From Diplonema japonicum (Eukaryota > Protista > Euglenozoa: Diplonemea): 64,000 bases of DNA. Under the pieces are notes generated by a model. The model was not told the DNA's origin. It was given only the letters and a program-made list of their open reading frames with translations, and ran no database searches. A program made the translations under genes and the position numbers. This document shows positions 9,499-42,856 of the stretch, piece after piece (the first letter of the stretch is position 1; each line of letters starts with the position of its first letter). Where the stretch lies: positions 310,001 through 374,000 of the forward strand of contig OZ025689.1 in NCBI GenBank assembly GCA_964019335.1, in the 5' to 3' direction.

Positions 9499-9639
9499 CC
9501 GTTCAAGTAAGGAAGGGATCAAGGAAGGGAGGACGTCGTACAAGTGATGTGGAAGGTGTCTCCTCGGCTGTATGCGCGGGAGACCAGGAGAGGGGGCGTG
9601 GTCGTCGATCTGACGCCCCCCCTGCTCAGCGGGACCCCT

Positions 9640-15300: not shown

Positions 15301-16523
15301 TGTGTCTTTCGGTGCCTGCCGTCCAGCTTCTTCACCGCTCTGAACGCAGCCCCGAGGTCCTTGCTCCGGCTGAGGTCGGCCGCCATCCTTCCCCATGCCT
15401 CACGCTTCGTCTCGTCAAGGAGTCGGTTGACTTCCTTCACCTTCGCCCTGTACTCCTCCACCACGTCCGCCTCTTGAAGCAGGAGTTCGCGCAGGGTGTT
15501 CCGCTCTTCGAAGGCGTCCTCGAGCTCAGCAGTCCACCAGGGGGTCGGGCCACGTCGCATCCCACAGAGGGGAATGTGGTCGTTCGCCGCAGTCAAAAGG
15601 GCTTGTGTAAACCCCTTCGTGACAGAGTCAATCGGAGCCGCCGTGTCAACACCAGCAAGCAGGCGGGCAACAGCAGCAGTGTAGTCATCCCATCTGGCTT
15701 TTTTGAAATTCCAGGTGGGGAAGGGGCGCTCCGAACGGTAGACGTCCTCAAGAGGCAGGTGAAAGGATACGGGACTATGATCGGAGCCCCACGTGCCCAG
15801 CGTCTTCGGCTCAAGCTTCGCGCAGCGCCCCACAACCAGGTCCAGAACGTGTCGTGACGAGTCCCTCGTCGGTTCGTTGCGGTCGTTGTAGACGGTGTAC
15901 CCGTGGGTGTCCAGCCAGTCCCTGACCACGTTCCCCCTCTCGTTCGGCGTCGTCACCGTGGCGTCCCAGGAGCTGTGGTGAGCATTGAAGTCACCCGCTA
16001 TGACTGTGTTCTTCCCCATGGGAAGGCTGCCAGGCCGCAGGTACTCAGGGTCCCTCGTGCCTCTGCCCGCGCTTACCGGTGTAAGGTAAACGTTGGAGAG
16101 AGTGATCGGCTCACGCTTCTCGCAGGAGATCCTCACATCCAGTCTCTCAGTGACACAGTCCCCAGCCGGGAGTACGTGCGGAACCTCCTCCGAGGCAAGA
16201 TCGTCGCGGACATACGTGACAATACCACCACCCCTCGTCGCAGTGCCGTCAGTCACCGGTGTCAACCGATCCCTCCTGTATGACCTGTACCCAGGCAGGT
16301 GTGGCGTGTCGTGCCCTTCCCTCAGGTGCGTCTCCTGTATCATGATGATGTCCAGCGACAAGAAGTCAGCATGGCGAGATACGACGGTCCATTTCGCAAC
16401 GAGGCCGTTGCAGTTCCACGAGACAACCTTGAGACCCTTAGGCGACGGGGGCGGCAGCTTCTTGGGTGGGCCAGGGTTTGTTTCGACCAGCCCAAGCAGC
16501 CCCAGCAGGTCCCTGACGGACAT
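12375..16523 (-). CDS. E2 ORF2: 2A-like peptide, APE, RT, RNase H (1382 aa, intact)
   Basis: Same motifs as E1 ORF2, collinear along its whole length. Confidence 0.95.
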   Translation of the reverse strand: MSVRDLLGLLGLVETNPGPPKKLPPPSPKGLKVVSWNCNGLVAKWTVVSRHADFLSLDIIMIQETHLREGHDTPHLPGYRSYRRDRLTPVTDGTATRGGGIVTYVRDDLASEEVPHVLPAGDCVTERLDVRISCEKREPITLSNVYLTPVSAGRGTRDPEYLRPGSLPMGKNTVIAGDFNAHHSSWDATVTTPNERGNVVRDWLDTHGYTVYNDRNEPTRDSSRHVLDLVVGRCAKLEPKTLGTWGSDHSPVSFHLPLEDVYRSERPFPTWNFKKARWDDYTAAVARLLAGVDTAAPIDSVTKGFTQALLTAANDHIPLCGMRRGPTPWWTAELEDAFEERNTLRELLLQEADVVEEYRAKVKEVNRLLDETKREAWGRMAADLSRSKDLGAAFRAVKKLDGRHRKTHLPVLEGRFVSDKAKADRLGAHFAKLYGRRGDGNSKDAAPSASRLGCQAFTVDDLTRGLRRMKTRSAAGEDGIFSEMLLHLNSDSLGVLLLLLNRSWLMGVVPGAWKKGVIVPVPKPGKDATLLASYRPICLTSCLCKLLERMIEERLTFLLDADGTGVEGLHDSQAGFRRGRSTEEQVATLTECMSRNKDDRRLSAALLFDFSSAFDLVPHGALLDKMRGKGLPEPFVEWTRSFLCGRTAAVTIGRSRGSTTKVRRGVPQGSVLGPILYTIYVDELARRLEGLADVSVLYADDVAVVISSGQGDVAGLERKAQAVVDAVEDWCRERDMLLSTSKTQAVCVPPQKRLGVYFTSSRVPLQPGAFQNPLFGLGVNADGTISGDQELAGLQVVEAGGVRIRCVRDMHAAVRRPDVDYVAARPLPLSEHARYLGVTVDSGLTFGEHAQDILRRASKRLRVLKLLSGTSWGSKRDTLRSLYVTYILPLLRYCMGVYYSRLDDVGRKDLAGLHQEAAVLITGCWSGSGGYKLLAEAGLLPLERMAEGAAATMTAKAFCWQSSPVHRETVKLKQANRLGCGWLRSGYQALRRCGLEPKVHFEYLSATPLAAPWQTGMVDFRTDLPGGVTRSSPDADRRKAAEAALAALPPGIHAYTDGSVVQVGQKAKGGSGVYLQLPPPLTPVSVCHGVNDFCSSFRAEGMAVKTALDMVATLRKTHPSLAKSPLSICTDSLSLVEQLRAGPTRQREKLDHQTWSRLVSAARTQGTPVVLQFVPSHCGVDGNEKADALAGEGTKRKQDRPSLDYRSVRALVRRWVVRRSAELITSLAHNYAVATELRSAHFPLGFPRQAETVISRLRIGHSALFFGFLQTAGPNRKHKGVLRCPACHAAPMSREHVVGGCPVIGRGAIDTPAGTPSLAFSLSRRVTQIYDLVVESGLLAWSRSGLFTSPSSLASTDVTAPSNVPPPPPVSLDAGPAAPVLR

Positions 16524-16664
16524 CCTCCCGAGTAGGGTGGGGATCAGTGCAGAAAAGTCGGTGAAGAAACAGAGAGGTAGGAGTCTCCTGGGGAGGATGC
16601 GAGGGAGACTAGGAGAGGGAGCATGGTCGTAGATCTGCTGCTCCCCCTGTTCTGCGGGGCCCCT

Positions 16665-19520
16665 TCAATTGGATGGACCCATGGAGGCAGAGCGCCCCTT
16701 GACCCCATTGGTGAAGAGATCTTTGGTCTCCGCGAACGACCTGGCCCGCCCCCTCGTACCCAGGTTCGTCACCGCAGCCTCAGAGGTCGTAGCGAGAGGA
16801 GGAGCCCCCTTCTTCCCCTTCCCCTTCCCTTTCCAGACACTGTCGTGTGTCGTCGTCGCCCCCGGTGTAGGGTCCCGCGGCACTGCCGTTCCCGTCGTCA
16901 GCGTGGCCGCCTGCGGCAGGAGGAGGCGGAGCGTCGTCCGCAGATCGGAGATCATCTCCTGCTGAGAGTCGATCGTCCTCTGCAGCCCGACGATCGACTC
17001 CTTCAGCGTGGCGACGAGCTCAGTGAGAGCGGCGACCTCAGGCGACCCGGAAGGGACTCCCTCCTTGTTTCCCGCAGACACGTTGCGGGGCGGTGTAGGG
17101 GACGTCACAGTGTCGAGCTGGGGGGGAGCCACCGAGCTCGGTATGGACGCCCACGGGCTGGTGGGAGGAAGCCCAGTTGCTTTCACCGCAGGGCCAGTCT
17201 CCGAGGGTGTCGACGCCGATACAGGTGCCGGGTCAGGTACAGGTGTAGTAGGCGCAGGTGCAGGTACATGAGAAGATGTGGGTGCCGGGGTCGAGGACGT
17301 TGCAAGCGCAGGTGCAGATGCAGGTGTCGTCCTGTTGATGAGAGGGGGCGGCTTGACGGTCGGGTGGTCGTCCGCATCACGGAGACAGACAAGGCGCCCC
17401 CCAAGGAGCCACGTCCTGGACTTCGGGGGCGGGCTGTCGACGACGATGAAGAACACGAGTTGCCTCGTGCCCTGGAACATCGTCTGCGTGCGTCGCAGGA
17501 CGGAGGATGGTTTCCAACCGATGTGGTCCATCACTTCGTCGAAGGCCGCCCTGGTGATGGACGGCGGGGCCCCGGTGAGCAAAAACTTGCGCTTCGTACG
17601 CAGTTTTGCGAGGGTTTCCCGGAGCCGCTGTTCCGTCTCCGGTAGGCACCGCACAGTCCATCCCTTACGGTGCGCCACCCCGAGAGACAACCCACCCAGC
17701 GTCCCCGCAATCCGAAAGGCATCCGCCCTCCCTTCCGCCACGATGGGTACATAAGCGTACCCCCCGCGTCTCTCCGTCGTCCGCATTAAGCACCCGTCCC
17801 CGGACCGGCGCAGGACGGCGTGGACGTGTGCTGCTTGCAGGCGCAGTCCCACCTCGTGGGTCCAGTGCCTCGCCCGCGGTTCCTCCTCACCGAACTTCCT
17901 TGGGCGGAAGACCGCACGATCCTCCATCACCGCGCCCTGAGCCTTGGCGAGCTCCAGGACCCTGGCCTTCGCCTCCTTCAGGCTGTCTGCACTGACACAG
18001 ACGTAGACGACCTCCGATCCGCTGTTGAAGGTGGAAGGCGGGGTGTAGGTGGGGGGGTCCAGCCCGAACGTGGAGACGTGGACCCTCCTGTTCACTGCGC
18101 GCGACCCAGAGACCATGACAATCTCGCTGGGGGTGGTGACACCGGGGACCTCTGTCATAAGGACAAAGGTGATGGATGCCGTAGGTAACGCGGAGCACAC
18201 GACCCCCATTCCGGAGGGATCGTCGAGCGCAATGACAGCGCGGGATGTTTCCGTCGGGGGGGACACGTTGGTGTAGATCGGGGCGTCCCATGTGTCTGGC
18301 ACCAGGTCCCATCGCGGGGTTGTGGAAGGGGCAGGGGCAGGGTCGTCCTCCATCTCCTCAGGGCCAGAGCTGGTGTCAGAGTCTGAGCTGAGGAGGAGCG
18401 TGCCTTGGTCTGTTGACGCGTTGGCGGAAGCGTTCGCGACTGCTTCGTCCTCGACCTTCTGGGCATCTGCCTTCTTGGCGGCCGCCAACCTCAAAGCTTC
18501 CTCCTTTTTGGCAGCGGCTGCGGCGGCTTCCTTTTCGGCGGCGGCGGTGGCTGCGACCTTCTTCTTCTCCTCGGCGGCGGCGGCTGCGGCTGCGGTCTCC
18601 TTCTCGGCGGCGGCGGCTGCAGCTTGCTTCCTGGCGGCGTCGGCTGCGGCCTTCCTCTCGGCGGCGGCGGCGGCAGCGGCTTTCTTCTCGGCGGCGGCCT
18701 TCTCCTCGGCGGCGGCGGCGGCTGCTGCTTTCTTCTCGGCGGCGGCGGCGGCTGCGGCTTTCTTCTTCTCGGCTGCAGCGGCTGCGGCTGTAGCCTTCTT
18801 CTCCTCGGCTGCTTTCATCTCGGCCGCAGCACGCGCAGCCTCCTTCTCCTCTGCCGCAAGTCGTGCAGTAGACCGCTCGCGCAGAGCCTTCTCCTCAGCC
18901 TCGACTGCTCTGCGAGCAGCCTCCACACCAGCCACGCGTGCAGCTTCCGTCTCGGCTGCCATTTTGACAACAGCAGCATCAGCCACCTCCTGCGCAGCCT
19001 TCATCTAAGCAGCTATTTCTGCAGCTACCACGTCGGCCGACTCGCGTGCAGCTTCCAAATCAGCAGCGATTCCCGCGAGTTCGACGTCGGCCGCAGTGCG
19101 TGCGGCTTCGAGGGGGTGTGTGGCGTCAGCTATGTGTGCGGCTTCGGCGGCAGCGTCAGCGCGCGCGGCTCTGGCGGCCTTCCTCCTAGCTTTTTTGCTG
19201 GAGGTCGGGGTGGCGACGCTGGCGTCAGGCGAAACCGGCCTTTTGACGGAGCCGGTCGGGGTGGAGGCGACAGGTGTCGCTGGGCCGGCTGTAGCGGCGG
19301 CGGCGTCGGGCGTGAGGAGGTCAATTACGGTGACCACCCCCGTCATCTTCTCCCGGTGCTCCGGCGTCAGGAGCTGCCCCAGCTCCCCGGCTGCTCCAGC
19401 GCTGCGGAGCATCCTCTCCACCCGCCGCTCCTCCCTGGCCTTGGACTGGGCCAGCTGCGTGCTGGCCCCGTTCCCTTCCGGCTTTGCCTTCTCCTTGTGC
19501 TTGTCTTTCTTCTTGCCCAT
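16665..19520 (-). CDS. E2 ORF1, interrupted by one in-frame TAG at 19005-19007; long (A5EKK)-like helical expansion
   Basis: ORFs 19005-19520 and 16665-19004 are contiguous and in frame. The core is homologous to E1 ORF1. Confidence 0.8.
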
Positions 19521-19964
19521 TTTTCTTTTCTTTTCTTTTCTTTTCTTTTCTTTTCTTTTCTTTTCTTTTCTTTTCTTTCGTGTTTTCTAGAAGCCGTGAA
19601 AAACGTTAGTGTTGTTTTCGATTCTAATGATAACCCGGTGTCATACCTTGTATGTACAAAATAAATGCAGCCACACCTGCCCCTGCATTGACAAGACCTG
19701 AAAGGGACACCAAGAATGTCAGCAATTTGTCGATTTTTTTCATTTTCCCTTTTCTTCCCCCCCACCTCCTATTTCCGTCCTCGTCGGTGCGAGTGGCGAA
19801 GAGAACGGGACAGCGAAAGGGATGAGCACGGAGACTCCACCACAACAGAAAAGCGAAAGAGAAAAGAATACGAGAAATTGAAAAGCCCAACCACAACCCC
19901 TCACCATTATCCCCGCGTTCTTTTAAAAAAAAAATGTTTGACTACTTTTCCATGTTGACCAAGG

Positions 19965-27373: not shown

Positions 27374-28311
27374 TTTAGTGCTCGACCTCTAATCTGAAGA
27401 GAAATTAATATTTGCTAAAAGGAAAAAAAAGCCAAGTCAAACATTGGATATAAAAAAAGGGGGGGCAGGGATGTGGGAAAGAAATAAAATAAAAAACATC
27501 TTTGTGTTTATTCACTTAAAAAAAGGAGGGGGGGGGATTCATTTTATAAAAAGGAAACCACCTTTGTGACCCATTGCCATTTTCTAAAAGGCTAGGGCTC
27601 GGGAAGGAAAAAAAGGGAGGTCCTCTTTTTTTGCTGTTCTATTACTTAACTTTTAATTTGGTGGTGCTCGGGGTAAGAGGAGGAAGAGATATTTTTCTAG
27701 TTCACGGCCATTCTAAGCAAAGTGTCAATAATTGCATCATTTTTCAGGATGTTCGCTTGTGTCGTGTGGATCTTGTTCAGCTGCGTGTGTGTTTTTTTTT
27801 TTTTTTTTTCAATTTAAAAAAATGAGATAAGAACAGCAGGTGCTGCCAGGATGTTTAAATCTTTACCGAGCCGCGCCGCAGCTGGGTCAAGCTGTCGCCA
27901 GAAGATCGAATGCGTTGAAGGAGGCTTTGCTCAGGTTTTGAGGCTTTGTTCGTATTTGACAAACCCTTCACCAGCGTTGGTGCAGGATGCGTTGCGGACC
28001 GCTTTCGTGGATCCACGACAGAAAAGTGGAAACGGTGGGCCTACAGTAAGGCTCGAGGCCAGCTTTTTAAGTCTCGAAAATGAGAGGCTTTTGTACAAAG
28101 ACCAAGAAGATGCTGCAAAGCTGGGTGGAGAACAAAAAATCCACGGTAATCAAAGACTTGAGAGACAGGGTCGCATGTCGAAGGATAAGCATGGAGGAAC
28201 TGAAGCATGCGCTGAGGCAACTGAAGAAAAGGAAATCCAACAATGGTATCCAAACTTTTCATGTATCACATCTCTCCGACATTTCTAGATTATCATTGCC
28301 CAGATCTGGCA

Positions 28312-31300
28312 AAGGAAAGAAAAGAAAGAAAAGAAAAGAAACATGACGACCACCAACAAGAAGAAAAAGAGGCCCGCTCACCACAAGTCCAGGACGGAAG
28401 AAATCCTGGAGAAAGCCCGCGGTGAGCGGGTAAAGGACAACGCCGCCGCCAGGGCGAAGCGCACGAGGAGGTGGAGAGGAAGCGCGCAGAGGGGGTCACG
28501 CCGGTGGTGACACCCCCCCCGGGCAAGGGAAGAAGGCGGCCAGAAGGGCCAGACAGAAGGCAGCAGCTGCTGACGCTGCCACCGCCGCCGCTTCGGGCTC
28601 CGACGACTCTGTCGTCTTAATTAGCGAGTCGCCGGGCGTTGTCACCTCGTTCACGGTCGACACGCCAGAGGTCAGGAGGGCGAGGATGAGGACTGCTGCC
28701 GCCGACACCACTGCTCCTGCACCTGCTGCTGCCAACACCACTGCTCCTGCACCTGCTGCTGCCGACACCACTGCTCCTGCACCTGCTGCTGCCGACTCCC
28801 CTGCCCCTGCACCTGCTGCTGCCGACACCACTGCTCCTGCGCCTGCTCCAGCTACTGCTGCCGTGTGGTCTACTGCCGTCCTCACTGCCGCTGCCTGCGA
28901 CACCGCCCTCCCCATGTCGGACTCTGACACCGACGAGAAGAACACGGCCCCCGCTCCCGCACCGGCCCCGGAGCCTCACTGGGATCTGGTCCCCGACACG
29001 TGGGACGCCCCCATCTACACCAACACTGCTCCCCCTGAGGAGGTGCCCCGCGCCGTCGTCGCTCTCGACGACCTCCAGCAGGTGGACGCGATTCGCACTG
29101 CGAGGCCCACGGCCTCCCTGACCTTCGTCCTCTTGACGGAGGTTGCCGGTTCGACCACCCCATGCACCGTCATCGTACTCGCCGGCCAGCGTGTCGTGCA
29201 CAAGGCCGTGCACACCTTCTCGGTCGGGTCGAACCCCCCCTCCTACACCCCACTCGCTTCTTTTGATGGCGGCTCTGAGGTAGTGTACGTCAGCGTGAAA
29301 GCTGACAGCGTGAACGCGGCGAAGGCCAGGGTTCGGGACCTCGTCGCGACCCAGGGCGTGGCGGTGGAGGAGCAGGCGATCTTCCGCCCGAAGAAGATCG
29401 ACGGGAACGAGCCGCGGGCGCGGCACTGGAGCCACGAGGTGGGACTGCGGCTCCCGGCGGCATCCGTCCATGCGGTACTCCGGGCCTCGGGCGACGGCTG
29501 CATGGTCAGGACGACCGAGCGGCGCGGGGGGTACACCTACGTGCCCATCGTAGCGGAGGGGAGGGCGGAGGCCTTCCAGCTGGCGAAGGCACTGGGCGGG
29601 TTGTCCCTGGGGGTGGCCCATCGCAAGGGTTGGACCGTGAGGTGCCTGCCGGAGACGGAGCAGCGTCTGAGGGAGGCCCTCGCCAAGCAGAGGACAAAGC
29701 GTCGGTACCTGCTCACCGGAGCCCCGCTGTCTGTTACCAGGGCAGCCTTCGACGGGATGATGGACCACATCGGTTGGAAGCCGTCGTCCATCATCCGACG
29801 CTCTGACACGGCGTTCCAGGGCACGAGGCAACTCGTGTTCTTCATCGTCGCCGACGCCCCGCCCCCCAAGGCCAGGACATGGCTCTTCGGCTCTCGTCTC
29901 GTTCGACTGCACGACGCGGAAGACCACCCGAGCGTCACGCTCCCGCCCCGCACCAACAAGAAGGCTCCACCCGCGGCTCGGACACCGGTTGCGGCAACCA
30001 CGGCCCAGACGCCGACGCCGGCCCCTGGCCCCACGGTGCAGTCCACAGGGCTGCCGAGCACCAATCCGTGGTCATCTCCACCGAGCTCGGTTGCCCCTCC
30101 GCCACTTGGCACTGTGACTCCGGTCTCCTCTGCGGCTTCCCCGACCACGACACCTCCCCGTGACTCCCAGAAGAAGAATCCCGCACCGGAACCTGAGGTC
30201 CCGGCGCTCCTCGCGCTGATCCAGTCGATGCAGGCGACCATCGACGGTCTGCAGGCGACGGTCCGCGACCTCCAGGAGAAGATGGCAGCGTCACTTGGCG
30301 CGCCGGCGCCATCTGCAGACGGTGCTGGGCGGACGGCAGTTGCTGGGAAGGGCAAAGGCGGCAAGGCTGGGTCCAAGGCAGGGACGAAGGGGCACCAGGC
30401 GCAGGGCGTAAGCACGCCAGGCCCCTACCCGACATCGACGGAGCAAGGGGGCGGAAGGGGACGCGCCCAGTCGCTGGCTGGCGACTCTGCTACCCCCAAC
30501 GGGGTCGGCGTGGACGGGCAGCCTCTGTGGGCCCGGCCCCCGCCCCTGCCAATTGAGGTCCCGCTGAGCAGGGGGGGCGGCAGATCGACGACCACGCCCC
30601 CTCTCCTGGTCTCCCGCGCATACAGCCGAGGAGACACCTTCCACATCACTTGTACGACGTCCTCCCTTCCTTGATCCCTTCCTTACTTGAACGGATGTCG
30701 GCCAGGGACCTGCTGGGGCTGCTTGGGCTGGTTGAGACGAACCCCGGTCCACCTAAGAAGCTCCCACCCCCGAAGCCGAAGGGACTCAGGGTCCTGTCCT
30801 GGAACTGCAACGGTCTTGCCGCCAAGTGGTCAACCGTGTCCTACCACGCTGGATATCATTATGATCCAGGAGACACACCTTAGGGAGGGGCATGAGACAC
30901 CATACCTGCCTGGATACACGTCCTACAGGAGGGACCGCACAACACCGGTGACGGACGGCTCTGCGACGAGAGGCGGTGGTGTCATCACGTATGTCCGTGA
31001 CTGCCTTGCCTCGGAGGAAGCTCCTTTCGTACTCCCTGAAGGTGACAGTGTCACTGAGCGATTAGACGTGAGGATCTCCTGTGTGAAGCGCGTCCCGGTC
31101 ACCCTCTCCAACGTGTACCTCACGCCTGTGAGTATAAGCAGAGGAACAAGGGACCCCGAGTGCCTACGGCCGGGCAGCCTACCTGCGGGGAAGAACACGA
31201 TCGTTGCTGGCGACTTCAACGCATACCACAGCTCTTGGGATGCCAAGGTGACAACGCCCAACGAAAGGGGGAACGTGGTCAGGGACTGGCTTGACACCCA

Positions 31301-34300
31301 CGGCTACACGGTCTACAACAACCGTGACGAGCCGACGCGGGACTCACCGCCACGCGTTCTGGACCTGGTGGTGGGACGTTGTGCGGAACTGGAGCCGAGG
31401 ACGTTGGGGACGTGGGGCTCTGATCACAGCCCGGTTTCCTTCCGCTTGCCGCTTGAGGACGCCTACTGCTCGGAGCGCCCCTGCCCTACCTGGAACTTCA
31501 AAAAGGCCAGGTGGGACGACTTCTCCGCGTCCGCTGCCGCCCTTCTGACCAAGATCGACACGAAGGGTCACATTGACTCCTTCACGAAGGAGGTAACAGA
31601 GGCTCTTCTGCATGCAGCGGACGACCACATTCCGCTTTGCGGAGTGCGACGAGGCCCGACCCCCTGGTGGACGGCCGAACTCGAAGACGCATTCGAAGAA
31701 CGGAACGCCCTACGGGATCGCTTCCTCAAGTCGGCTGAGAGGATGACAGCGTAGCGGCGGTGTATAAGGCGAAGGTCAAAGAGGTGAATCAACTCTTGAC
31801 CGAGTCGAAGCGCGCGGCCTGGGGTGAGATGGCGGCTGACCTCAGTCGGAGCAAGGACCTCGGGTCTGCGTTTAGGGCGGTAAAGAAGCTGGACGGCAGA
31901 CACCGCAGACCGTACCTTCCCATTCTCGAGGGGAGGTTCGTGACGGACAAGGCGAAAGCCGACCGCCTGGGGGCTCACTTCGGCAAGCTCTACGGCCAGG
32001 GTGGTGATGGGGACGCGGCGGACGTAGCTCCTTCGACGAACGTGCTTGGGTGCCACGCCTTTACGGTGTATGATCTCACCCGCGGTCTGGGAAGGATGAA
32101 GACACGCAGTGCAGCGGGTGATGATGGCATCTTCGCGGAGATGCTTCTCCACCTCGACCAACCCTCGCTCGGGGTTCTACTTCTGCTCCTCAATCGCTCA
32201 TGGCAGGCGGGGATTGTGCCGGGTGCCTGGAAGAAGGGGGTGATTGTTCCAGTGGCGAAGGCAGGGAAGGACGCCACGTTGCTTGCATCGTACCGTCCCA
32301 TATGTCTCACTAGCTGTCTTTGTAAGCTGCTTGAGAGGATGATAGAGGAGAGGCTTACCTTTCTCCTAGACTCTAGCGCGTCGGGCGTTGAGGGTCTCCA
32401 CGATAGCCAGGCTGGCTTCAGGAGGGGCCGCTCCACGGAGGAGCAGGTGGCGTCCCTGACCGGGTGTCTGTCGAGGAACAAAGACAGTCGGCGTCTGTCG
32501 GCTGCCCTGCTGTTTGACTTCTCATCTGCGTTTGACCTGGTTCAGCACGAAGCTCTCCTGGGCATGATGCGGAGGAAGGGGATCCCTGGGCCCTTCGTCG
32601 AATGGACGCGCTCCTTCCTCTGCGGTCGTACGGCGGCGGTCATGGTGGGTCGTTCGCGCGGGTCGACGACGAAGGTGAGGAGAGGGGTGCCCCAAGGGTC
32701 TGTGCTGGGACCCGTCCTTTACACCATCTACGTCGACGAGCTAGCCAGGTTGCTGGTTGGGATGGCGGACCTGTCGGTTCTTTATGCCGACGATGTTGCG
32801 GTGGTGGTCTCAGCCGGGCAGGGCGACCTGGCTGGTCTTGAGCGAGGGGCCCAGGCTGTGATGGACGCGGTTGAGGGCTGGTGTGGGAGACGGGGCATGC
32901 TGAGCTCCAGCAAGTCGCAGGCAGTGTGCGTTCCCTATCAAAAGCGGCTTAAAGTCTACTTCTCTTCGTCGCGTGTCCCGCTTTGCCCGGGGGCCTTCCA
33001 GGACCCTGTCCTTAACCTTGGGGTTGGGGCCTGTGGGACCTTGTCTGGCGTCCGTGAGCTGTCTGGCTTTCGGGTCGTGGAGGCGGGTGGCAAACGGTCC
33101 TTCGACATTCCCGCTGCCATCCGGAGGTCCGACATTGGTTACATGGCGGCTCGCCCCCTACCTCTGTGTGGGTCGGCGAAGTATCTTGGGGTCACTGTAG
33201 ACTCTGGGCTCACGTTTGACGAGCATGCGGGGGATGTCCTGAAGCGCGCTGACAAGAGGCTGAGGGTTCTAAGGCTCCTGTCGGGCACGACCTGGGGGTG
33301 CAAGAAGGCCACGCTCCGATCTCTGTACCTCACGTACGTTCTCCCGCTACTCCGGTACTGCATGGGTGTTTACTTTGCCAGGCTCAGGGACAGCAGGGTG
33401 GAGGAGCTTGTCGGGCTCCACCAGAGAGCGGCGGTGCTGATCTCGGGTTGTTGGCACGGCTCGGGCACGGCGAAGGTTGTTGCTGAGGCAGGACTGCTAC
33501 CCCTCCGACAGATGGCTGAGGGAGCTGCGGCGGTGTTGACGGCGAAGTCGTTCTGCTGGAGGACCTCCCCGGTTCACCGCGAGGTCCTTGAGCAGAAGCG
33601 GATGACCGGTATGGGCAATGGGTGGCTGCGTGCGGGTATCCTTGCGCTACGGCGCTGCGGACTGCAGGGATGGACGACGCAGGAAGGCTTCAGGAAGTAC
33701 GACACCTTCGAGCTACTCACTGCCTCGCCCAAAGTAGCACCGTGGCATGCGATCCTGGTGGAGTTCAGAACTGCCCTTCCCGGCAGGGTCACGCGTTCGT
33801 CGCCGGACGTGGATAAGCGGAAGGCGGCCGTGGAGGCTCTGGCTGCCCTTCCACCGGGTATCCATGCCTATACGGATGGTTCTGTCGTACGGGACCGCCA
33901 GAAGTGGAGGGGCGGTGCCGGGGTCTTCTTGCAGCTCCCCCGCCCCCACGAACCCGTGTCCGAGAGCTTCGGCGTCAGCAATTTCTGCTCTTCCTTTCGG
34001 GCGGAGGGTCTGGCTGTCAAGGTGGCTCTGGACATGGTGGCTGCGCTCCGGAGCGAGCACCCCACGTTGGCAGACAGCCGGCTGTCGATCTGTACCGACT
34101 CGCTCTCTCTCCTTGATCAGCTGAGGGCAGGTCCTTCGCGGCAGAGGGAGAGGCTCGACCACGAGACCTGGGAACTGCTGGTGGCCGCGGCACGTGCACA
34201 AGGTGCACCAGTCATTCTCCAGTTTGTGCCGTCCCACTGCGGGGTTCCTGGCAACGAGGCGGCAGACAGGCTGGCCGGGGAGGGCACGAAGCGCGAGCTG

Positions 34301-34705
34301 ACTCGCCCCTCTCTCGACTACAGGTCGGTCAGGGCCCTGGTCCGTCGCCAGATTCAGCAGAGGTCTGCGGTCATTGTCGGGGAGGTGGCCCCGAGATACG
34401 CGAGGGCCACGGGGCTCCGAGCGGCGTGCTTCCCCCAGTCCCTCCCCAGGCTAGCGGAGACGGTCATCTCGCGGCTGAGGGTAGGGCACTCCGCTCTCTT
34501 CTTCGGCTTCCTGCAGGCGGCTGGACCGAACAGGAAGAAGGCTGAGCTCAGCTGCCCAGCGTGTGGAGCAAAGATGTCCAGGGAGCACGTTGTTGGGGGG
34601 TGCGCTGTGGTTGGACGGGGTTCGCTCGACGCTCCCAATGGACGCCCCTCGCTGGTGGAGTGCCTGTCAAAACGCGTGACGCAGGTATTCACCCTTATCG
34701 CCGAC
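28312..34705 (+). mobile_element. E3: near-identical copy of E1 (family A), frameshifted and lacking the family-A 3' end
   Basis: Preceded by TSD agatctggca (28302-28311) and an A/G-rich leader; ATG at 28343. ORF1 and ORF2 are nearly identical to E1 with small deletions. Homology stops at ...FTLIAD (34705). Confidence 0.92.
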
Positions 34706-36067
34706 AAACGGGGGAGGCCTCCGGGCCTCTTTTTAAAAAAAGGGGGTCCGATTACACACACACATGAACATGTAGACGAACGCGGTGTGTGTGGTGGCTG
34801 CCCACCTCCACGGTGGTGGTCCCTGGGCAACGCGCAGGTGGTGAAGGTTGCGCGGCTGAGAGGCAGCTCGAGAGGAGCAGGGGAACGGTGTTGCGTTGGG
34901 CGGCCGAGGGCCGGAGCCGGAGCGCCGTGTTGGATGGCATCCCCTGGGGAAGCCTCCTGCACGCCAGAACGAGGACCGGATCCGGAGACGCCGTTTGATG
35001 GTTTTCCTGGGGAAGCTGACCTGAACGCCCGAGCGAAGTGGCCTGAGCGTGGGGAGCACTGTTTGCCGACAGAAAACAAGATTAATGCAAAATGTCCAGA
35101 GTGCGCAACAGTGTTTTCCACGTGAGGGGTTCGGTTTCAAAGTGGGTCCTCCAGCCACCAGAGTTGTAGGCTGGGTACCCGCGGAGAGAGAAGCGGAGCG
35201 GAGGCGTCAAGTACGGTGGACCACCTCAAGGGATGTAAGTCCATTGTGTGACACAGTCTCTCGGTGAAGGTCCGACTTCTGGTGGGTAGGCAGGCAGAAC
35301 CGCATAGGGGTGTAAGGAACACCATTGTGTGACCTGTCGCACACGGGGAAAGCCCAAGGCCGGTGGGTTATCTGCCAATGTGTCCCCCTCCTCTACTTCG
35401 CCTCTCACAACCTCTTCCTCCCCGCTGACGATTGACTCCACAGCACTCGCCGGCCTACCTGGTGCGCCCGCGTCATTACGCGATAGGGAGTCTCGTTGGA
35501 AAAACATCTTTCGCAGCTGAGAAGGGGGGTTTTTTTTTAGAAATAGTAACCAGTAATTCTTTTTTCCCCCTCCCCCATTGGTTTCCCTTTCTTTTTATTT
35601 TCCCTACCAGGCTCCTTTTCTAGTTATGCATTCCTCCCTTCTTTGTGGAAGTTGAGTTCTGAACTTGACTTTTCCTTTTACATTTCCTTTTCAAATTTAT
35701 ATTTTAGGCTCCCACAGCCCAACAAAACCAGCAGATGGTGGGGTCCCTGTGGCTAGATAAATCAAAATTAGGGATCTCATCGCCGTCCTTTAATATTTGG
35801 GGTTGTCTTTATTTGGTGACAGCCGAAGCCTTCGAGGCCCAAGAGCTGCGTGGCGGGGGAATGGGGAAAAAATAAGAAAGGTGGATGTCGGGGGCCCCAG
35901 GAAAATATACAAGAGGTCGAGCAAACGAGCAAGAGGTCCCCCCCGATATGGCTCAGTAAGAGAGACTGTTATTAACCTTCCCTTCCCAATTTTTATGGTT
36001 TCAACTTTCTCCGCCCCCCATCCCCCCCGCCTGGTAGTGGAATAATAATTATTAATTATTATTAAAA
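34706..36067 (+). mobile_element. E4: degenerate 3' portion of a different non-LTR family with a (TTA)n-A tail
   Basis: 3' UTR resembles E6 (ggctccc..agcccaacaa; atggctcagtaa.agagactg; cgcctggtagtggaata). Decayed CxxC fragments (KCPECATVF). Followed by TSD agatctggca at 36068-36077. Confidence 0.7.
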
Positions 36068-36077
36068 AGATCTGGCA

Positions 36078-38545
36078 AGGCTCCGGGCCCAGACGGCATC
36101 TACAACGAAATGCTGAAGTACCTGGGACCGGTGGCCAGGGAAGTTCAACTCCTCCTCTACAACTCATCCCTCCAGACCGGTGTCGTCCCTGCCGAATGGA
36201 GGCGGTCTTCCATCATCCCCCTCATGAAAAAGGGCAAAGACCAATCCGAACCCGCCTCGTACAGGCCGATCGCGCTGACGTCAAACATCGTGAAGACGTT
36301 GGAGCGAATAGTCAAGGACAGGATGTGCTTCCTGCAGGACACAGGACGGGTAAGGCAATTGCACACATCGCAGGCGGGTTTCCGGAAAGGGAGGTCCACG
36401 GAGGAAAACGTGCTGTACGCCGCCTCAAAGCTCAAAAGTGTCAGACTGAGCCAAGGTCTGGGGGGTCTCCTGCTGTTCGACTTCAAAGGAGCCTTCGACA
36501 CAGTCTGGCACAAGGGAGTGATCGCAAAGCTGATAGGCGACGGATACCCTCCCAAGCTCGTGAAATGGATCACCTCTTTCCTCGACCAACGTAAAGCCTC
36601 CGTCTGTGTGAACGGGGAACACGGCTGCGTGAAGACAATGACAGGGGGCGTACCCCAAGGCACCATCCTGGCCCCGCAGCTCTTTTCCATCTACGTCAAC
36701 GACCTGGCCAGGTTGTACAGGAAGGCTGGAATCGACGCGGTAGTGTACGCAGACGACATAGCGATAGTGCTGGAGGCGGGGAGTCCTGCCGAGCTGAACA
36801 AGAAGGTGCAACGCGCGGTGAGCCTCACGGAGCGATGGTGCGAGACGTTCTCGATGAAACTGTCCCAGGAAAAGACAGAGTTCATGCCGGTAGAGGGACA
36901 GTTCTGGAACTCGCACGACAGTCTCGCAAACCTCATCAACGCCCGCTTCCCCTCGAGTGGGGCGAAAGTCAAGGTGGTACGCGAGGCTAAATATCTTGGC
37001 GTCACCTTCGACGAAAGCATGAACTTCCACGAGCATGTGCAGAAGGTGAAGGGAAAGATCAACAGCCGTCTTCGCCTGCTGCGCAAACTCGCCGGAACAA
37101 GGTGGGGCTGCCGCAAGCACACCCTAAGGACGCTGTACCTGACGTACGTCCAACCGGTGCTGCGCTACTGTCTCGGTGCTTACGGCAACTTCGTGGGACA
37201 TGCTGCTCTGGCCGAGTTCGACTCGCTACAATACACAGCAGCGAGGTTGATAACGGGATGCTTCGACAAGACTTCCGCGACGGTGACCAGGTCAGAGGCG
37301 GGCATCTGGGAGATTGAATCCTTGCTGGAACACGACACCCTGGTGCTCTACGAGAAGGCACAGCGTCAACCGGGGACAACAGCGGAGAAGGCAACAAAGA
37401 TATCCGGGGGTCAGATGTGGTACGGGAAAAGCTGGCGAAACACCGCGCTCGACTTGGCGAAGAGTCACGGGATGCCGGAACGCGAAGACCTACCACACCA
37501 CTCAGTCACTCAGAGCGCAGACCTGCAGCTCCCTCCATGGGTCCAACCCAAAGTCCTGTTCCACCCCGACCTAGTCCGCAAGGTACACAAGAAGGACGAA
37601 AAAAGTCTCAAACTCCGAGCGGCCTTCGAATCGATCAGGAGGCACGGCATCCCAGATGTGATCGTCTACACCGACGGGTCAGTCACCGGACACAGGAACG
37701 GCGGTTCGGCAGCTGTGATAAGGATCGGGTCTGACACACCGAAGCAGGCACGCAAGAGCGGAGGAGCAGTGACTTCGGCCTACCGATGCGAACTGAAAGC
37801 GCTGAACCTGGGGCTGCAATTGACACTGTACCATACCCGGAGACAAGGTGTGACGACCGGAGTAGTGCTGCTGTGCTCGGACTCCCAGTCGGTGATCAGA
37901 AGACTGATGCAGGGCCACAGAGAGATGAGGCAGAAGGAGGAACTGCTGGCTTGGAAATGGCTGGACGCGCTTGACCGCCAAGGCCTCTCCACCATCATCC
38001 AGTACGTTCCCGGACACTGCGGCCTACCAGGTAACGAGCAAGCCGACCGACACGCCAAACGCGCCGCAAAGGAGTCGACACCGGACGGACCGACGGACCT
38101 GATGACCACAAAGAGCCTCATCAAGAGGTCGGTGAACCGCGACTGGGCAGCCTCGTGGGAGAAGACGGGTCGGGACAAGAAGTACCGAGAGGAGATCGGC
38201 GCGAGGTACCTCCCCTTGAAGGAACTGTCCTGCAGACACGATGAGGTACAGATAACGAGACTGCGAACGGGCAGGAGCCACCTGACTTGCGGTTTCCTGT
38301 CGAAACCCGTCCAGAATGACATACGTTGCCTCTCGTGCCATTCGATCCAGGACAGACACCATCTGCTGATCGGGTGCCCAGCTGGAGACAAGGTCCGCGA
38401 AGAGATCTTCGGGGATGACATCCCCACGACCACGAAGGAGATGCTCACAATGAGGGTGAGTGAAACCGCCTCCTACCTGAAGAGGATGGACCTCATCTGA
38501 GACTCTCACGACCGCCGAGCCGCTGACCGCAATCGCAGGACGTAG

Positions 38546-38580
<35 letters not shown>

Positions 38581-39113
38581 AACAGAAAAAAGTGAGCCAA
38601 AAAGTACTAGTGAACCCTCTCCCCCTCCCCCTGTGTTTCCCATTATTACCCTGTCGTGCACCCCAACTTCTGTCTTCACCTTTCCCCGCCCCTACACACA
38701 TCCCCCCGTATCATTTCCCTTTGTTTTGAATTTTCTAAGGCTCCGCTGCCCAACAAAGCTGGCTGAAGGGGATGCCTCCGTGCCAGTGTGCCGCTCGTGA
38801 GGGCGAGCACGGACGAGGTACCCCACTCCTCAAAAACCCGGAGGTTCGCCCGAAGGGTGCTGGCTTGGGAAGCGGGCTGGAGAGCTGCCGGGGTCACGGA
38901 GGTGGGCGAAGTCGCGAACACTGGAGCCCACGAACCGGCCCCACCTCCGTCCTCGGTACGTATGGATAGTTTAGCGGAAGTTTCAAGGTTATCACATTCC
39001 TTTCCCCCTTTCGTTAGATACAGGGAGACCCTTGGTCCACCTGTTCTGTCCCCCCCCCCAGCCTTTGCTTCGCACGTCAGTGGTTCATTTATTATTATTA
39101 TTATTATTTAAAA
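36078..39113 (+). mobile_element. E5: 5'-truncated non-LTR retrotransposon (RT-RNase H), (TTA)n tail
   Basis: Begins inside the KAPGPDG motif. The tail ttattattattatttaaa is followed by TSD agatctg (39114-39120). Confidence 0.9.
36110..38500 (+). CDS. E5 RT + RNase H ORF (N-terminally truncated)
   Basis: YRPIALTS, QAGFR, DFKGAFD, GVPQGTILAP, YADD, KYLGV, YTDGS, VPGHCGLPGNEQAD, CLSC...H. Confidence 0.92.
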   Translation: MLKYLGPVAREVQLLLYNSSLQTGVVPAEWRRSSIIPLMKKGKDQSEPASYRPIALTSNIVKTLERIVKDRMCFLQDTGRVRQLHTSQAGFRKGRSTEENVLYAASKLKSVRLSQGLGGLLLFDFKGAFDTVWHKGVIAKLIGDGYPPKLVKWITSFLDQRKASVCVNGEHGCVKTMTGGVPQGTILAPQLFSIYVNDLARLYRKAGIDAVVYADDIAIVLEAGSPAELNKKVQRAVSLTERWCETFSMKLSQEKTEFMPVEGQFWNSHDSLANLINARFPSSGAKVKVVREAKYLGVTFDESMNFHEHVQKVKGKINSRLRLLRKLAGTRWGCRKHTLRTLYLTYVQPVLRYCLGAYGNFVGHAALAEFDSLQYTAARLITGCFDKTSATVTRSEAGIWEIESLLEHDTLVLYEKAQRQPGTTAEKATKISGGQMWYGKSWRNTALDLAKSHGMPEREDLPHHSVTQSADLQLPPWVQPKVLFHPDLVRKVHKKDEKSLKLRAAFESIRRHGIPDVIVYTDGSVTGHRNGGSAAVIRIGSDTPKQARKSGGAVTSAYRCELKALNLGLQLTLYHTRRQGVTTGVVLLCSDSQSVIRRLMQGHREMRQKEELLAWKWLDALDRQGLSTIIQYVPGHCGLPGNEQADRHAKRAAKESTPDGPTDLMTTKSLIKRSVNRDWAASWEKTGRDKKYREEIGARYLPLKELSCRHDEVQITRLRTGRSHLTCGFLSKPVQNDIRCLSCHSIQDRHHLLIGCPAGDKVREEIFGDDIPTTTKEMLTMRVSETASYLKRMDLI

Positions 39114-39120
39114 AGATCTG

Positions 39121-41122
39121 CCTTTCAAGCTACACAACCCCTGAAGGATCTGACCAGATACGAGGTACTGTTCCCGAAGAAAACATGGTCAGATCGACAA
39201 AGGGAAGCAGCCAGGGCCTACAAGCTCCCAGAGAGAGCGGCAACACCATTCTCAGGTTATGCCTTTGAGAAGAAGTACAGAGTTACACCTTGGCAGAGAT
39301 TCGAGGGTAAACTGATACTGGCCCCCTTCCTCGACATACATGTGAAGAGATCGGACACCAGTGAAGTCAGAAGGAAAGCAACAGAGGACACTCTGAACGG
39401 GCTTATCGAGAAGCACGGAAAAGCCTTCTGCATGATCTTCACAGACGGGTCATTGAAGGACGGCAGGAACGGAGGAGCTGCTGCGATACTGTTGCGAGGG
39501 GAGAGAAAAGCTTCGTATGGGGTCAGCGGTGGATCCTATACGTCATCCTACAGGTGCGAGCAAAGGGCCATAGAGCTGGGGCTGCACCTCGCGACAAACC
39601 TCTCGAAGAGAGTGGGCACGAGCCAAGAGATGGTCCTTATTTGCACTGATTCGCAGTCGGTAATAAGGAGGATGTGCCAGGGGCACCTGTCCGCTGTCTC
39701 TGCAGACGAGTACAAACTGTGGCACGAGGTAGCGGGACTTGTAAAGAGAGGCCACAAAGTGGTCATACAGTACGTACCAAGTCACTGCGGATTCAAATGG
39801 AACGAGATGGCGGACAAGAAGGCGAAGGAGACCTGCCGGGCAGTTGCCCACGAACAGAAGACCAGCATAGACATCGTGAAGTCACTGGTGAGAAAAAAGG
39901 TACTGGCGAACCACCTCCTCTTCTGGAAAAAAACGGGTGTCAAGGAGACATACCGAGAGCTTTTCGCAGGGAATTTCGAGAAGTTTGAAGAGTTAAACAG
40001 GGAACAAGAAGTTGCGATCATGAGGCTGAGAGTGGGGAAGAGCCCCCTCATAAGCGGGTATCTACTCAATCCCCCGGCCGATGTGGTCACATGCCACCTT
40101 TGTTCGATGCCTCAGACGCTGAGCCACCTCCTGAAAGAATGCCAGGACGATGGTAGAGCTGACCAGAGAAGTCAGATCTTCGGTTCCTCCCTTCCTTCGC
40201 TCAAGGCCCTACTGTCAACTGACGCCGGGAAAACCGTACAATTCCTGGAACAGCAGGGCCTGTTGTGACCGACCGTGAGATATAATCCCCTTTATAAATT
40301 ATATTATAAACTAAACTTTACTTAAATACTTTTCTCTCAAATTATCCTGAGTTTGAAGCTGTACTGTTGTTATACGACTTCAGACAGCAATTGTTTCTAA
40401 CTCAATCTCTCGACTCTGGCTTCACTCCTATCCTTTCTTTTCACCTCCCTCCCCAGTGTCTTCCCTTATTTTCCATTACCAGGCCCCTGACCCCCGCCCC
40501 CAGTGTTATTCAAAATTTTCACTCACCTTTCATATAGAAAGAAAAAAGAAAAAAAAAAAGAAAAAAAGAAGGACAGATGATTCAAGCTTCGGTGTACACG
40601 ATCGAGCTTGATTTGAATTCCTTTATTTTTGAGAAAAAAAAAAAAAAAGAAAAAAAAAAAAAAAAGAAGAATATATATAAAAAAAAAAAAAAAGAACTGT
40701 AGAACGAAACTTAATTGAATTGAATTTATTGGCTCCCGAAAGCCCAACAAGTCCAGCAGACGGTGGAGTTTCACAGTCAGCTGGTTAGTTTTTCACAATT
40801 GAAACTCCTCCAAAGTTCTTAAAGTCTGGGAGGTCGTCTCTTGTTACTAGAGGCGGCTAATGCCTCGAGACCCAGGTGCTGCCTGGTGGGTGGGATCGGT
40901 TTTATTTTATTATGAAAAGAGCGTGGTGAGGGGGTCCAAGTAATTTACAACAGGGAGCAGCGGACCAGGACCCCTCGACCAATGGCTCAGTAACAGAGAC
41001 TGCTTTTCACGAATCACTTTCAAACACCTCTCTTGGTTTGAAGTGATGTCCCATTCCCTTTGGTTTTCTCTACTCCCCTTCGATCCTCCCGCCTGGTAGT
41101 GGAATATTTATTATTATTAAAA
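39121..41122 (+). mobile_element. E6: heavily 5'-truncated non-LTR retrotransposon (RNase H + 3' UTR), (TTA)n tail
   Basis: RNase H ORF; the tail ttattattaaaa abuts the intact target agatctggcatc-tRNA-Asp. Confidence 0.88.
39342..40268 (+). CDS. E6 RNase H and C-terminal Cys/His region (fragment)
   Basis: IFTDGS, SYRCE, ICTDSQS, YVPSHCGFKWNEMAD, RLRVG, CHLC...H. Confidence 0.85.
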   Translation: MKRSDTSEVRRKATEDTLNGLIEKHGKAFCMIFTDGSLKDGRNGGAAAILLRGERKASYGVSGGSYTSSYRCEQRAIELGLHLATNLSKRVGTSQEMVLICTDSQSVIRRMCQGHLSAVSADEYKLWHEVAGLVKRGHKVVIQYVPSHCGFKWNEMADKKAKETCRAVAHEQKTSIDIVKSLVRKKVLANHLLFWKKTGVKETYRELFAGNFEKFEELNREQEVAIMRLRVGKSPLISGYLLNPPADVVTCHLCSMPQTLSHLLKECQDDGRADQRSQIFGSSLPSLKALLSTDAGKTVQFLEQQGLL

Positions 41123-41134
41123 AGATCTGGCATC

Positions 41135-41206
41135 TCCTCGGTAGTATAGAGGTCAGTATATCCGCCTGTCACGCGGATGACCCGGGTTCAATTCCCGGCC
41201 GGGGAA
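41135..41206 (+). tRNA. tRNA-Asp(GUC), the targeted copy
   Basis: TCCTCGGTAGTATAGAGGTCAGTATATCCGCCTGTCACGCGGATGACCCGGGTTCAATTCCCGGCCGGGGAA folds as a cloverleaf; a T-run lies downstream. Confidence 0.92.
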
Positions 41207-41261
41207 TTCTTTTTGCCAAGTAGATACAAAATACGCCCGGGTTTATTAAGTCAAAAAAGAA

Positions 41262-41333
41262 TTCCCCGGCCGGGAATTGAACCCGGGTCATCCGCGTGAC
41301 AGGCGGATATACTGACCTCTATACTACCGAGGA
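41262..41333 (-). tRNA. tRNA-Asp(GUC), identical inverted copy with an unoccupied upstream flank
   Basis: Exact reverse complement of 41135-41206, with its own T-run terminator. Confidence 0.92.
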
Positions 41334-41494
41334 GATGCCAGATCTGGGCAATGATAATCTAGAAATGTCGGGGTGGTGGAGATACGCCATGCAGACACAA
41401 GGTACCGAAAATGCAAAAATTACCATACTTGGTGGAAAAAAGTTATTTGTTTACTGTGAATGGTGTTTTTCTCAAAAAAAAAAATGGATTTTTC

Positions 41495-42856
41495 CTAGCA
41501 ATGCAAACATTGCGAAACGGAAGTGGTTTTACACACCTGGTCTGAGATCGCATCTTCAAGATCTTGTATCTGTGAATAAAGTGGCTGGAGGGCTTCTTCG
41601 GTGGCGTGTTCGACTTCCTGTGCCTGGACCTTTGCGTCTTGGGCTTGACGCTGCCACATAGACTTCTCTTTGGTCATGGAGTCGACATCTTCTTGGACGT
41701 AGTCGAAAGTCTTCCCGAGCGGGTTGGTGATTTTGACAAGGGTTTGGAGGGAATCCTTGAGCTTGGAAATTTCGGTGGTGAAGACTTCCCTTTCTCTGCC
41801 TGTTTGCCTGTGGCGCGTTGTCGTGAGGCGAATGCCGGTGTTGTCCTCGTCGTCGAGCCGAGTGGCTTGCTCCCGTGCTTGTTTTTGTTTTTCTTCTTCT
41901 GCAGCTTTTTTGGCAGCGGCAAGCTTTGCGATGTACCCATCCCCGTCGCCACCAACACCACCCTCCGCGTTCTGGAAGGCAGCCTCGTCCGGTACATCTG
42001 CTTCTTCCTCACTGTCCGTGTCCAGTGTACCTTTCTCAAGCCCTGTGGGTTTTTCCTTTTCTCCTTCTGCAATAACTCCTTGCGGCACCACCTGTTGCTG
42101 TTGTTTCTGTTCCTTTGCTTTCGTTTTTTCCTCCCTTCTTTCGATGGGTGTCGGTGCAGCCTGCGGCACCGGTTCCTGTTTCACGCTCTCTTTTTCCTCG
42201 GCTTCCTTCTTCGCCTCTTCCATCGGCTTCTCCTCGTCCTTCGGGCTCTCTTTCGGTGCCGGTTTTTCTTCCTTGGGCTTTTCTTTATCCTTCTCTTTCT
42301 CCTTTTCTTTTTCCTTCTCCTTTTCCACTTCCTTTTCTTTGGTGTCCTTCTCAGGCGCAGGTTCCTTTGTTACTGAGGCTGTGGAGTCTTTTCTCTCAGG
42401 GTCGCGGGTTTTGAGGGCTTGCTCGGCTTTGTCAGCGAAGCGAGCCAGCACTTTGGAGACGGCTCGGTCGGATTTTTCGGTAGGGATTTTGCTGGCAGCG
42501 GCGAGTTTTTGCAGGAATTCGTTGGTATGCTGTGGTTCAAGTCCAGATACGATTTTAATCGGTTTTGCAGCGAGAGGGGGCTGCAGCTTGAGGGTGTAGT
42601 TCACACTGCTGATGATCTTTTGCAGGAAGAAGACCTTTGCCTCCTTCTCCTGCACCTTTGAGGAGTCCATCTCATCATCGGAGTACAGCTTCGTTGCAAA
42701 ACCAGTCGTTTTTATCGCGTTCGTCACAATGTCGTGCAAGAACCTGAACGGCGGCTTCTTCAGCAGCTTGTCGCTCAGCCTCGGCGCTTTGATCACAGCC
42801 CCCAACTCTTTCTTCGTCTTGTCAAGCGTCGCTTGGTCAACTTCATCTGCAGACAT
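41495..42856 (-). CDS. IFT54: Intraflagellar transport protein IFT54 (TRAF3IP1/MIP-T3); 3' end probably spliced
   Basis: N-terminal LSDKLLKKPPFRFLHDIV...KIVSGLEPQHTNEFLQ, a KE-rich linker, and C-terminal coiled coil TNPLGKTFDYVQEDVDSM. Confidence 0.9.
   Translation of the reverse strand: MSADEVDQATLDKTKKELGAVIKAPRLSDKLLKKPPFRFLHDIVTNAIKTTGFATKLYSDDEMDSSKVQEKEAKVFFLQKIISSVNYTLKLQPPLAAKPIKIVSGLEPQHTNEFLQKLAAASKIPTEKSDRAVSKVLARFADKAEQALKTRDPERKDSTASVTKEPAPEKDTKEKEVEKEKEKEKEKEKDKEKPKEEKPAPKESPKDEEKPMEEAKKEAEEKESVKQEPVPQAAPTPIERREEKTKAKEQKQQQQVVPQGVIAEGEKEKPTGLEKGTLDTDSEEEADVPDEAAFQNAEGGVGGDGDGYIAKLAAAKKAAEEEKQKQAREQATRLDDEDNTGIRLTTTRHRQTGREREVFTTEISKLKDSLQTLVKITNPLGKTFDYVQEDVDSMTKEKSMWQRQAQDAKVQAQEVEHATEEALQPLYSQIQDLEDAISDQVCKTTSVSQCLHC

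Follow-up and report, generated by a model that had tools for sequence, protein, structure and literature searches.

We describe two stacks of long interspersed nuclear elements (LINEs), together with a passenger without recognisable protein, that lie directly upstream of two different tRNA genes in the diplonemid Diplonema japonicum. The stacks were found in the window, a 64,000-nt stretch of contig OZ025689.1 (assembly GCA_964019335.1, positions 310,001 to 374,000 of the forward strand), in which ARAGORN and Rfam identify three tRNA genes, one tRNA-Lys(CTT) and two tRNA-Asp(GTC). A tblastn search with 20 LINE proteins placed 133 of 133 segments inside the two stacks and none elsewhere in the 64 kb. 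The tRNA-Asp genes form a tail-to-tail pair with identical 72-mers and 55 nt between them; one is loaded with insertions and the other is empty. In window coordinates, the pair and its flanks comprise:

28276..28311, plus strand: displaced 5' flank of the plus-strand tRNA-Asp, positions -38 to -3, ending in a 10-nt target-site duplication (28302-28311)
41123..41134, plus strand: positions -12 to -1 of the loaded tRNA-Asp
41135..41206, plus strand: tRNA-Asp(GTC), loaded copy (ARAGORN and Rfam)
41207..41261, unstranded: 55-nt spacer with one T-run terminator per tRNA-Asp gene
41262..41333, minus strand: tRNA-Asp(GTC), empty copy (ARAGORN and Rfam)
41334..41371, minus strand: 38-nt flank of the empty copy, unbroken, which represents the pre-insertion sequence

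An earlier reading of this DNA, made without database searches (the sequence-only reading), had taken the inverted twin for a pre-insertion site whose plus arm was split by insertions, and had proposed aligning the two flanks as a check. The alignment bears this out: 28276-28311 is identical over 36/36 nt to the reverse complement of 41336-41371 and occurs once on the plus strand of the window, while identity ends upstream of the 36-mer (leftover similarity p=0.31, 1000 shuffles). The chance expectation for an exact inverted match of 36 nt in 64 kb is about 1e-12, and a chance origin is therefore excluded. The last 2 nt of the 38-nt flank precede the plus-strand tRNA, behind a second copy of the final 10 nt of the 36-mer. 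With the 36-mer at one end and the remaining 2 nt at the other, the intervening 28312-41122 must therefore have been inserted, a span of 12,811 nt placed 12 nt upstream of tRNA-Asp. From its outer edge inward, the stack at tRNA-Asp consists of:

28101..28286 (approximate), plus strand: E0, an older LINE relic covering the region just before the reverse transcriptase (RT) core (tblastn of protein P0242, 61% over 64 aa, E 8e-14)
28312..34705, plus strand: E3, a LINE with complete 5' end, open reading frame 1 (ORF1) and ORF2 (APE, RT, RNase H; Pfam), 3' end lost
34706..34742, plus strand: 37-nt junction between E3 and E3b, no second copy in the window
34743..36067, plus strand: E3b, a multicopy passenger without recognisable protein, its 3' tail common with E5 (79% over 75 nt)
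36068..36077, plus strand: target-site duplication of 10 nt (-12 to -3)
36078..39113, plus strand: E4, a 5'-truncated LINE with RT, RNase H, a zinc-knuckle-like end, 3' untranslated region (UTR) and ATT tail (Pfam)
39114..39120, plus strand: target-site duplication of 7 nt (-12 to -6)
39121..41122, plus strand: E5, a 5'-truncated LINE with RNase H, 3' UTR and ATT tail (Pfam)

The second stack stands at the tRNA-Lys gene, on the opposite strand:

4542..4614, minus strand: tRNA-Lys(CTT), target of the second stack (ARAGORN, Rfam)
4627..11911, minus strand: E2, a full-length LINE with both ORFs open and a poly(A) tail joined at -12
11912..11938, minus strand: target-site duplication of 27 nt (-12 to +15 of tRNA-Lys)
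11939..19579, minus strand: E1, a full-length LINE, ORF2 74% to that of E2, one stop codon in ORF1
19580..19590, minus strand: target-site duplication of 11 nt (-12 to -2), outer edge of the stack

A single rule describes the insertions at both genes. All five visible 3' junctions (E1, E2, E3b, E4 and E5) start the duplication 12 nt before the mature tRNA, the two at tRNA-Lys exactly (preceding base T, first base C) and the three at tRNA-Asp with a 1-nt ambiguity (first base A). The 5' junctions are variable, with duplications of 7, 10, 10, 11 and 27 nt, and that of E2 copies the first 15 nt of tRNA-Lys. In both stacks the elements are co-directional with the tRNA and turn their 3' ends toward it. 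The E2/E3 family (98%) is present at both tRNAs, and families merely 28-33% alike in protein use one site. The Asp and Lys flanks have 3/12 bases in common at -12..-1 and 10/26 further up; because the offset is constant in flanks that share so few bases at the junction, the targeting appears to be positional. The enzymes (APE, RT), target-site duplications, 5' truncation and A-rich tail of tRNA-gene-targeted non-LTR (long terminal repeat) retrotransposons are all present, and the fixed distance and orientation recur at different tRNA genes, in two whole loci.

Public sequencing runs extend this picture. They were compared as contig sets, four over the tRNA-Asp stack and two over the twin, from 16 listed; ten runs contain at least half of the neighbouring host stretch, and X1 is possibly the source of the window itself. 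For the twin the comparison covers the best 12 of 19 loose ends and 16 of 63 pieces. Among the loose ends listed for X5, the E5/E3b-type tail runs into two further loci. At the first, a tRNA 5' end follows in register with tRNA-Asp (16/22 letters, by eye) after an A run spanning -12; at the second, the tail is followed by 12 nt and then by a sequence that may resemble the 5' end of tRNA-Sec. In X1 the tail has one more loose end, from three contigs with an agreement of 0.64, which is an unreadable mixture.

We therefore consider it probable, at roughly 0.7, that the -12 position has been hit again and again by several distantly related families of RNase H LINEs and by a non-coding passenger, likely tethered to the RNA polymerase III (Pol III) initiation complex, with the twin left unhit. 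Several points weigh against this reading. Two targets only are seen whole, the 3' junction of E3 itself is lost, so that its nick is unobserved, and each of the two extra X5 loci is known from a single contig end in a selected listing. By rough contig depth against unique flank, each family has about 20 copies, compared with about 70 for the E5-type tail and about 14-15 for this tRNA-Asp, and the targets of most copies are unseen. The Pol III start site and the TFIIIB dependence at these loci would follow by precedent from other organisms. Searching metagenomes yielded 80 loci with identities of 24-35%, whose combined 0.32 Mb contained no tRNA according to ARAGORN; they are remote relatives carried by short contigs, uninformative on diplonemids.

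The full-length elements E1 and E2 measure 7.3-7.6 kb and have a separate ORF1 of 742 and 951 aa, and E1, E2 and E3 carry 31-59 nt of GAAAA repeats ahead of the first ATG. In E1 and E2 (9640-9700 and 16665-16700) ORF2 runs on in frame after the single TGA stop of ORF1, and a 2A-like motif lies about 60 codons past this TGA; stop read-through or re-initiation may thus make ORF2. E3 is 98.07% identical to E2, with 84 substitutions and 10 indels, every gap being in E3; five of its deletions break frames. Since 51 of the substitutions are synonymous and 31 non-synonymous, most of them would predate the insertion. Several of the E3 deletions lie between short direct repeats, a pattern expected of microhomology-mediated repair.

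E3 and E3b may have arrived in a single chimeric event or may have been fused by a later deletion. By blastx, E3b gave no match. In one X6 contig a spliced-leader end is joined at about 34743 (X6 is not on record as RNA), its 22-nt loose end matching a euglenozoan spliced leader tabulated in PMC3795323, and an X3 contig has another element tail joined at the same point. As the two joints coincide, copies of the E3b family likely start at about 34743 and are trans-spliced. Within E3b, the frame 34934-35620 holds a 63-aa ORF with CxxC followed by four successive TGA stops, with no Pfam match; this is probably a chance frame, read-through being also conceivable. The first 800 nt fold about 1.6 standard deviations better than 15 shuffles, and one A-box-like 12-mer is present.

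E4 has 32% amino-acid identity to E2 and E5 has 33% to E4; E4, E5 and E2 are mutually 28-33% alike in protein. In contigs, longer copies of the E4 family extend upstream of 36074. Family contigs match 4 nt into the duplication before E4 and 3 nt into that before E5, which we read as the microhomology typical of truncated LINEs. E3b, E4 and E5 share a block, GGCTCC...GCCCAACAA, 330-390 nt before their 3' ends (35700-35760, 38735-38770 and 40730-40790), a candidate recognition signal. The element tails contain no B box. No credible further RNA gene was found in the tRNA-Asp stack, either by relaxed ARAGORN (175 calls, which are noise) or by Rfam at E<=1; sub-threshold miRNA-type Rfam matches derive from the hairpin of the twin and were rejected.

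How the flanks came to be shared bears on the history of the site. The sequence-only reading had proposed an ancestral inverted duplication of the tRNA with 38 bp of flank. The sharing of tRNA and flank stands, whereas the exact 38 bp is not established: the relic E0 abuts, and weakly overlaps, the displaced flank (the final third of its P0242 match being weak). Because E0 ends at the edge of homology, 38 nt is a minimum length for the shared flank, or else the extent of a later repair tract. Under the latter possibility, repair or gene conversion with the inverted twin as template would have written the left flank, eliminated most of the earlier insertion E0 and reset the site. It would account for a 3'-cut LINE relic, in the orientation of the stack, ending at the homology edge, and for 26 nt beyond the duplication with zero mismatches. 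However, the picture would look identical if the duplication had simply ended there or if E0 had suffered an internal deletion, and with E3-E2 divergence under 2% the 26-nt identity needs no special cause; we regard a repair tract as a minority explanation. In any case, the twin must be either older than E3-E5 or descended from an empty allele.

LINE endonucleases nick one strand, reverse transcription starts at the nick, and the position of the second cut varies. We hypothesize that the diplonemid elements would use such target-primed reverse transcription, in which the template strand would be nicked first, at -12, roughly the Pol III start, and that a tether to the Pol III initiation complex, not the DNA sequence, would guide them there. 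[quoted passage not shown] The TRE5 elements of Dictyostelium are B-box dependent, with an ORF1 protein that binds TFIIIB, as also described for TRE5-A alone (PMC3159450), and several of them can hit one gene (PMC5911963, PMC3159450). By analogy with these systems, tethering would be the likeliest mode of targeting. ORF1 is the natural candidate for the tether and is without a characterised relative: its core matches no Pfam family above cut-off, a search of 1.84 billion representatives returned two matches for it, one being its own E1-type family and the other weak, and its Atlas leads are all below 0.9, two of them RRM-bearing.

On this mechanism each new copy would land next to the tRNA and push older ones outward. 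The tRNA gene would remain a target, because its promoter is internal and 12 nt of leader are kept. The decay of the copies fits such outward displacement. In the Asp stack E0 is a relic, E3 is broken and E4 is close to its family contig: E3 differs from X5 family contigs by 17 letters and 14 gaps over 30581-31740, and E4 differs from its own by 2 letters over 36074-38534. In the Lys stack the outer E1 has a stop and the inner E2 has none. Insertion also changes the composition of the flank, with A+T at -40..-13 rising from 58-61% before insertion to 82-96% after it. The inserted A/T tail could thereby improve TFIIIB loading and amplify a one-sidedness that began by chance.

The following host genes lie around the stacks:

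19965-20246: small Rdx-family gene (CxxC), stop about 375 nt before the tRNA-Lys insertion site
41495..42856, minus strand: IFT54 (TRAF3IP1), host gene (Pfam MIP-T3)
44421-46535: phosphoglycerate mutase with a weak N-terminal RIIa-like match, host gene
55824-58190: malate synthase G, host gene
61022-62605: kinase with N-terminal EF hands, host gene

The best named matches of IFT54 come from Diplonema papillatum and from records labelled Rhum and Hpha, with other eukaryotes far behind; together with the spliced-leader match in X6, this identifies the host as a diplonemid. Beyond the tRNA-Lys stack, an intergenic, degenerate inverted repeat resembling a miniature inverted-repeat transposable element lies at 21314-21461 (76% over about 150 nt).

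The empty copy does lie just downstream of IFT54, as the sequence-only reading had stated, with the stop 149 nt from the empty site. That reading had further taken the asymmetry as a sign of context or selection, which the counts do not bear out: under equal odds, four insertions all in one arm have p=0.125 (three events 0.25, five 0.0625), and other tRNA-Asp copies look empty as well, at least two having long unique upstream contigs with no element tail in 30 letters. In its explicit form, the argument would be that the arms are equal targets, with minus-arm insertions purged by selection or with the minus arm less occupied by Pol III. The loading of 4:0 on identical 38-nt flanks speaks for either version. 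For selection in particular, minus-arm insertions would lie 149 nt behind the IFT54 stop, sense to the host gene cluster; the eight Pfam-matched host ORFs are all on the minus strand (30 frames scanned, mostly minus), and only the empty arm is co-directional with them. Against this, at the co-directional tRNA-Lys sense insertions amounting to 15 kb stand about 375 nt beyond the Rdx-family stop, p=0.125 is compatible with equal odds, and the further tRNA-Asp copies are also without a tail. We find selection or unequal occupancy doubtful as the cause, and infer that the one-sided loading is chance, possibly amplified by the A/T tail. Context effects on loading would nonetheless be plausible by analogy, because the rates at which Ty3 uses near-identical tRNA genes differ up to 10.6-fold (PMC6673722).

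A bolder hypothesis, to which we give somewhat less than even odds, is that diplonemids independently evolved a radiation of Pol III-docking RNase H LINEs and passengers that nick the start of any tRNA gene genome-wide, and that A/T tails make a gene that has been hit hotter, so that stacks grow beside an empty twin.

Alternatively, the elements might recognise the conserved A-box region of the tRNA gene directly, through protein-DNA contact or pairing of read-through RNA, and cut at a fixed distance from it. Sequence-specific LINEs of the R1/Tx1 type do cut at a fixed place. Single-base precision would suit such recognition, being tighter than the 37-90 bp spread of TRE5-A (PMC5006619), as would the extension of the E2 duplication to +15 within the tRNA. 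Conversely, the cut sites have no common motif, the tRNAs differ, and the same offset is used by families 28-33% alike in protein. Direct recognition of the A-box region thus seems improbable to us next to tethering by the Pol III complex.

The locus itself is supported by contigs from two studies, which break where the shared 36-mer forces a branch (X3 at 28305; X1 and X5 at 41342). An X1 contig spans the empty junction, 41305-41371, with zero differences, and an X5 contig of the other study bridges the spacer, 41185-41283, at a depth of 2.8 vs 16 for unique flank. The X1 empty-junction contig has a depth of 155.7, where 139-153 is expected for one empty arm and 191-210 for two; a half-empty plus arm would predict 165-182, also compatible with this value. 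The whole stack is spanned by no listed piece, and the 5' junction of E3 falls within a skipped repeat, 28307-28373. No joint from 28311 to 41133, the mark of an empty plus-arm allele, was seen among the best 15 of 20 joints, an uninformative result, since contigs lose rare variants and the arms are indistinguishable. A joint of 28238 to 36083 was considered as a deletion allele and rejected, as it belongs to a related LINE family that matches both E0 and E4. That twin or stack is an assembly artefact, a fold-back or collapsed repeats, is very unlikely: a perfect hairpin of 80 bp plus, spacer depth well under single-copy depth and a stack that no single piece spans might invite the suspicion, but unique sequence flanks both sides, the X5 contig crosses the spacer, contigs of two studies end exactly at the shared 36-mer, and the X1 depth is nearer one empty arm than two.

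Targeting of tRNA genes is a textbook safe-harbour strategy, known from LTR elements of yeast and from the retroelements of dictyostelids. A euglenozoan case with an RNase H LINE, single-base precision and an orientation opposite to that of TRE5 would be another independent origin with a new geometry. In a lineage for which we found no mapped Pol III start sites, the stacks would show where these lie, and a LINE with one predictable and harmless landing position would be a lead for genome-writing tools. What makes the locus valuable above all is the targeting rule, with its offset of -12 repeated at a second, unrelated tRNA gene. The twin by itself is ordinary and serves as a built-in control, in which targets identical over 118 nt and 55 nt apart would allow loading by chance, by feedback or by neighbouring genes to be compared.

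A full-text literature search, with most subscription papers outside its reach, returned no report of tRNA-targeting retroelements in diplonemids or other Euglenozoa; in the accessible portion of the genome paper on D. papillatum, both LINEs and 211 tRNA genes are mentioned, with no link drawn between them. Within Euglenozoa the natural comparison is with Ingi and L1Tc of trypanosomatids, which are likewise LINEs of APE-RT-RNase H organisation with tandem copies and target-site duplications (PMC5814959, PMC12278014, PMC3708506). They have a 2A-like motif before APE; the GLVETNPGP of E1 and E2 deviates from GD(V/I)ExNPGP, while the relative P0242 has the full motif, which is present in five other clades as well (PMC3708506). 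As described, Ingi and L1Tc differ in having a single ORF, where E1 and E2 have two, and a 77-nt Pr77 leader, where E1, E2 and E3 have merely GAAAA repeats (judged by sequence, no Pr77 query having been run). Targeting of tRNA genes is absent from the parts of their descriptions that were available (PMC5814959, PMC12278014, PMC3708506). In a tree, E1, E2 and E4 group with transcriptome and D. papillatum proteins at a weak support of 0.72, no named ingi or L1Tc row being included.

Outside Euglenozoa, Ty3 of yeast and DGLT-A of Dictyostelium resemble the diplonemid elements in position, inserting about 12-15 bp ahead of the mature tRNA at the Pol III start or next to it, and in the unequal use of identical genes (PMC6673722, PMC5006619), but they are LTR elements with an integrase, whereas the diplonemid ones are LINEs. 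Among known systems, NLTR-A and TRE5 of Dictyostelium come closest. TRE5-A/B/C of Dictyostelium discoideum are non-LTR elements found upstream of many tRNA genes, each time at a set distance (PMC5911963, PMC3159450). Their distance is about 50 bp, with the 5' end facing the tRNA, in contrast to -12 and a facing 3' end in the diplonemid elements (PMC3159450). They are also L1-type, with an ORF2 of APE, RT and a zinc finger and without a listed RNase H, in contrast to the RNase H of the E1-E5 ORF2 (PMC5911963, PMC3159450). Dp_NLTR-A of Dictyostelium purpureum is, like E1 and E2, an element with two ORFs, APE, RT and an RNase H after RT, of about 7.4 kb (PMC5006619, PMC5911963), and it lies very close upstream of tRNA genes (PMC5006619). 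It differs in its distance of 2-6 bp from the mature tRNA vs 12 nt in the diplonemid elements, and in its amoebozoan host (PMC5006619); the two are set side by side by description, no NLTR-A protein being named among 237 matches. The co-directional, RNase H-bearing form that inserts at -12 is thus distinct from both TRE5 and NLTR-A.

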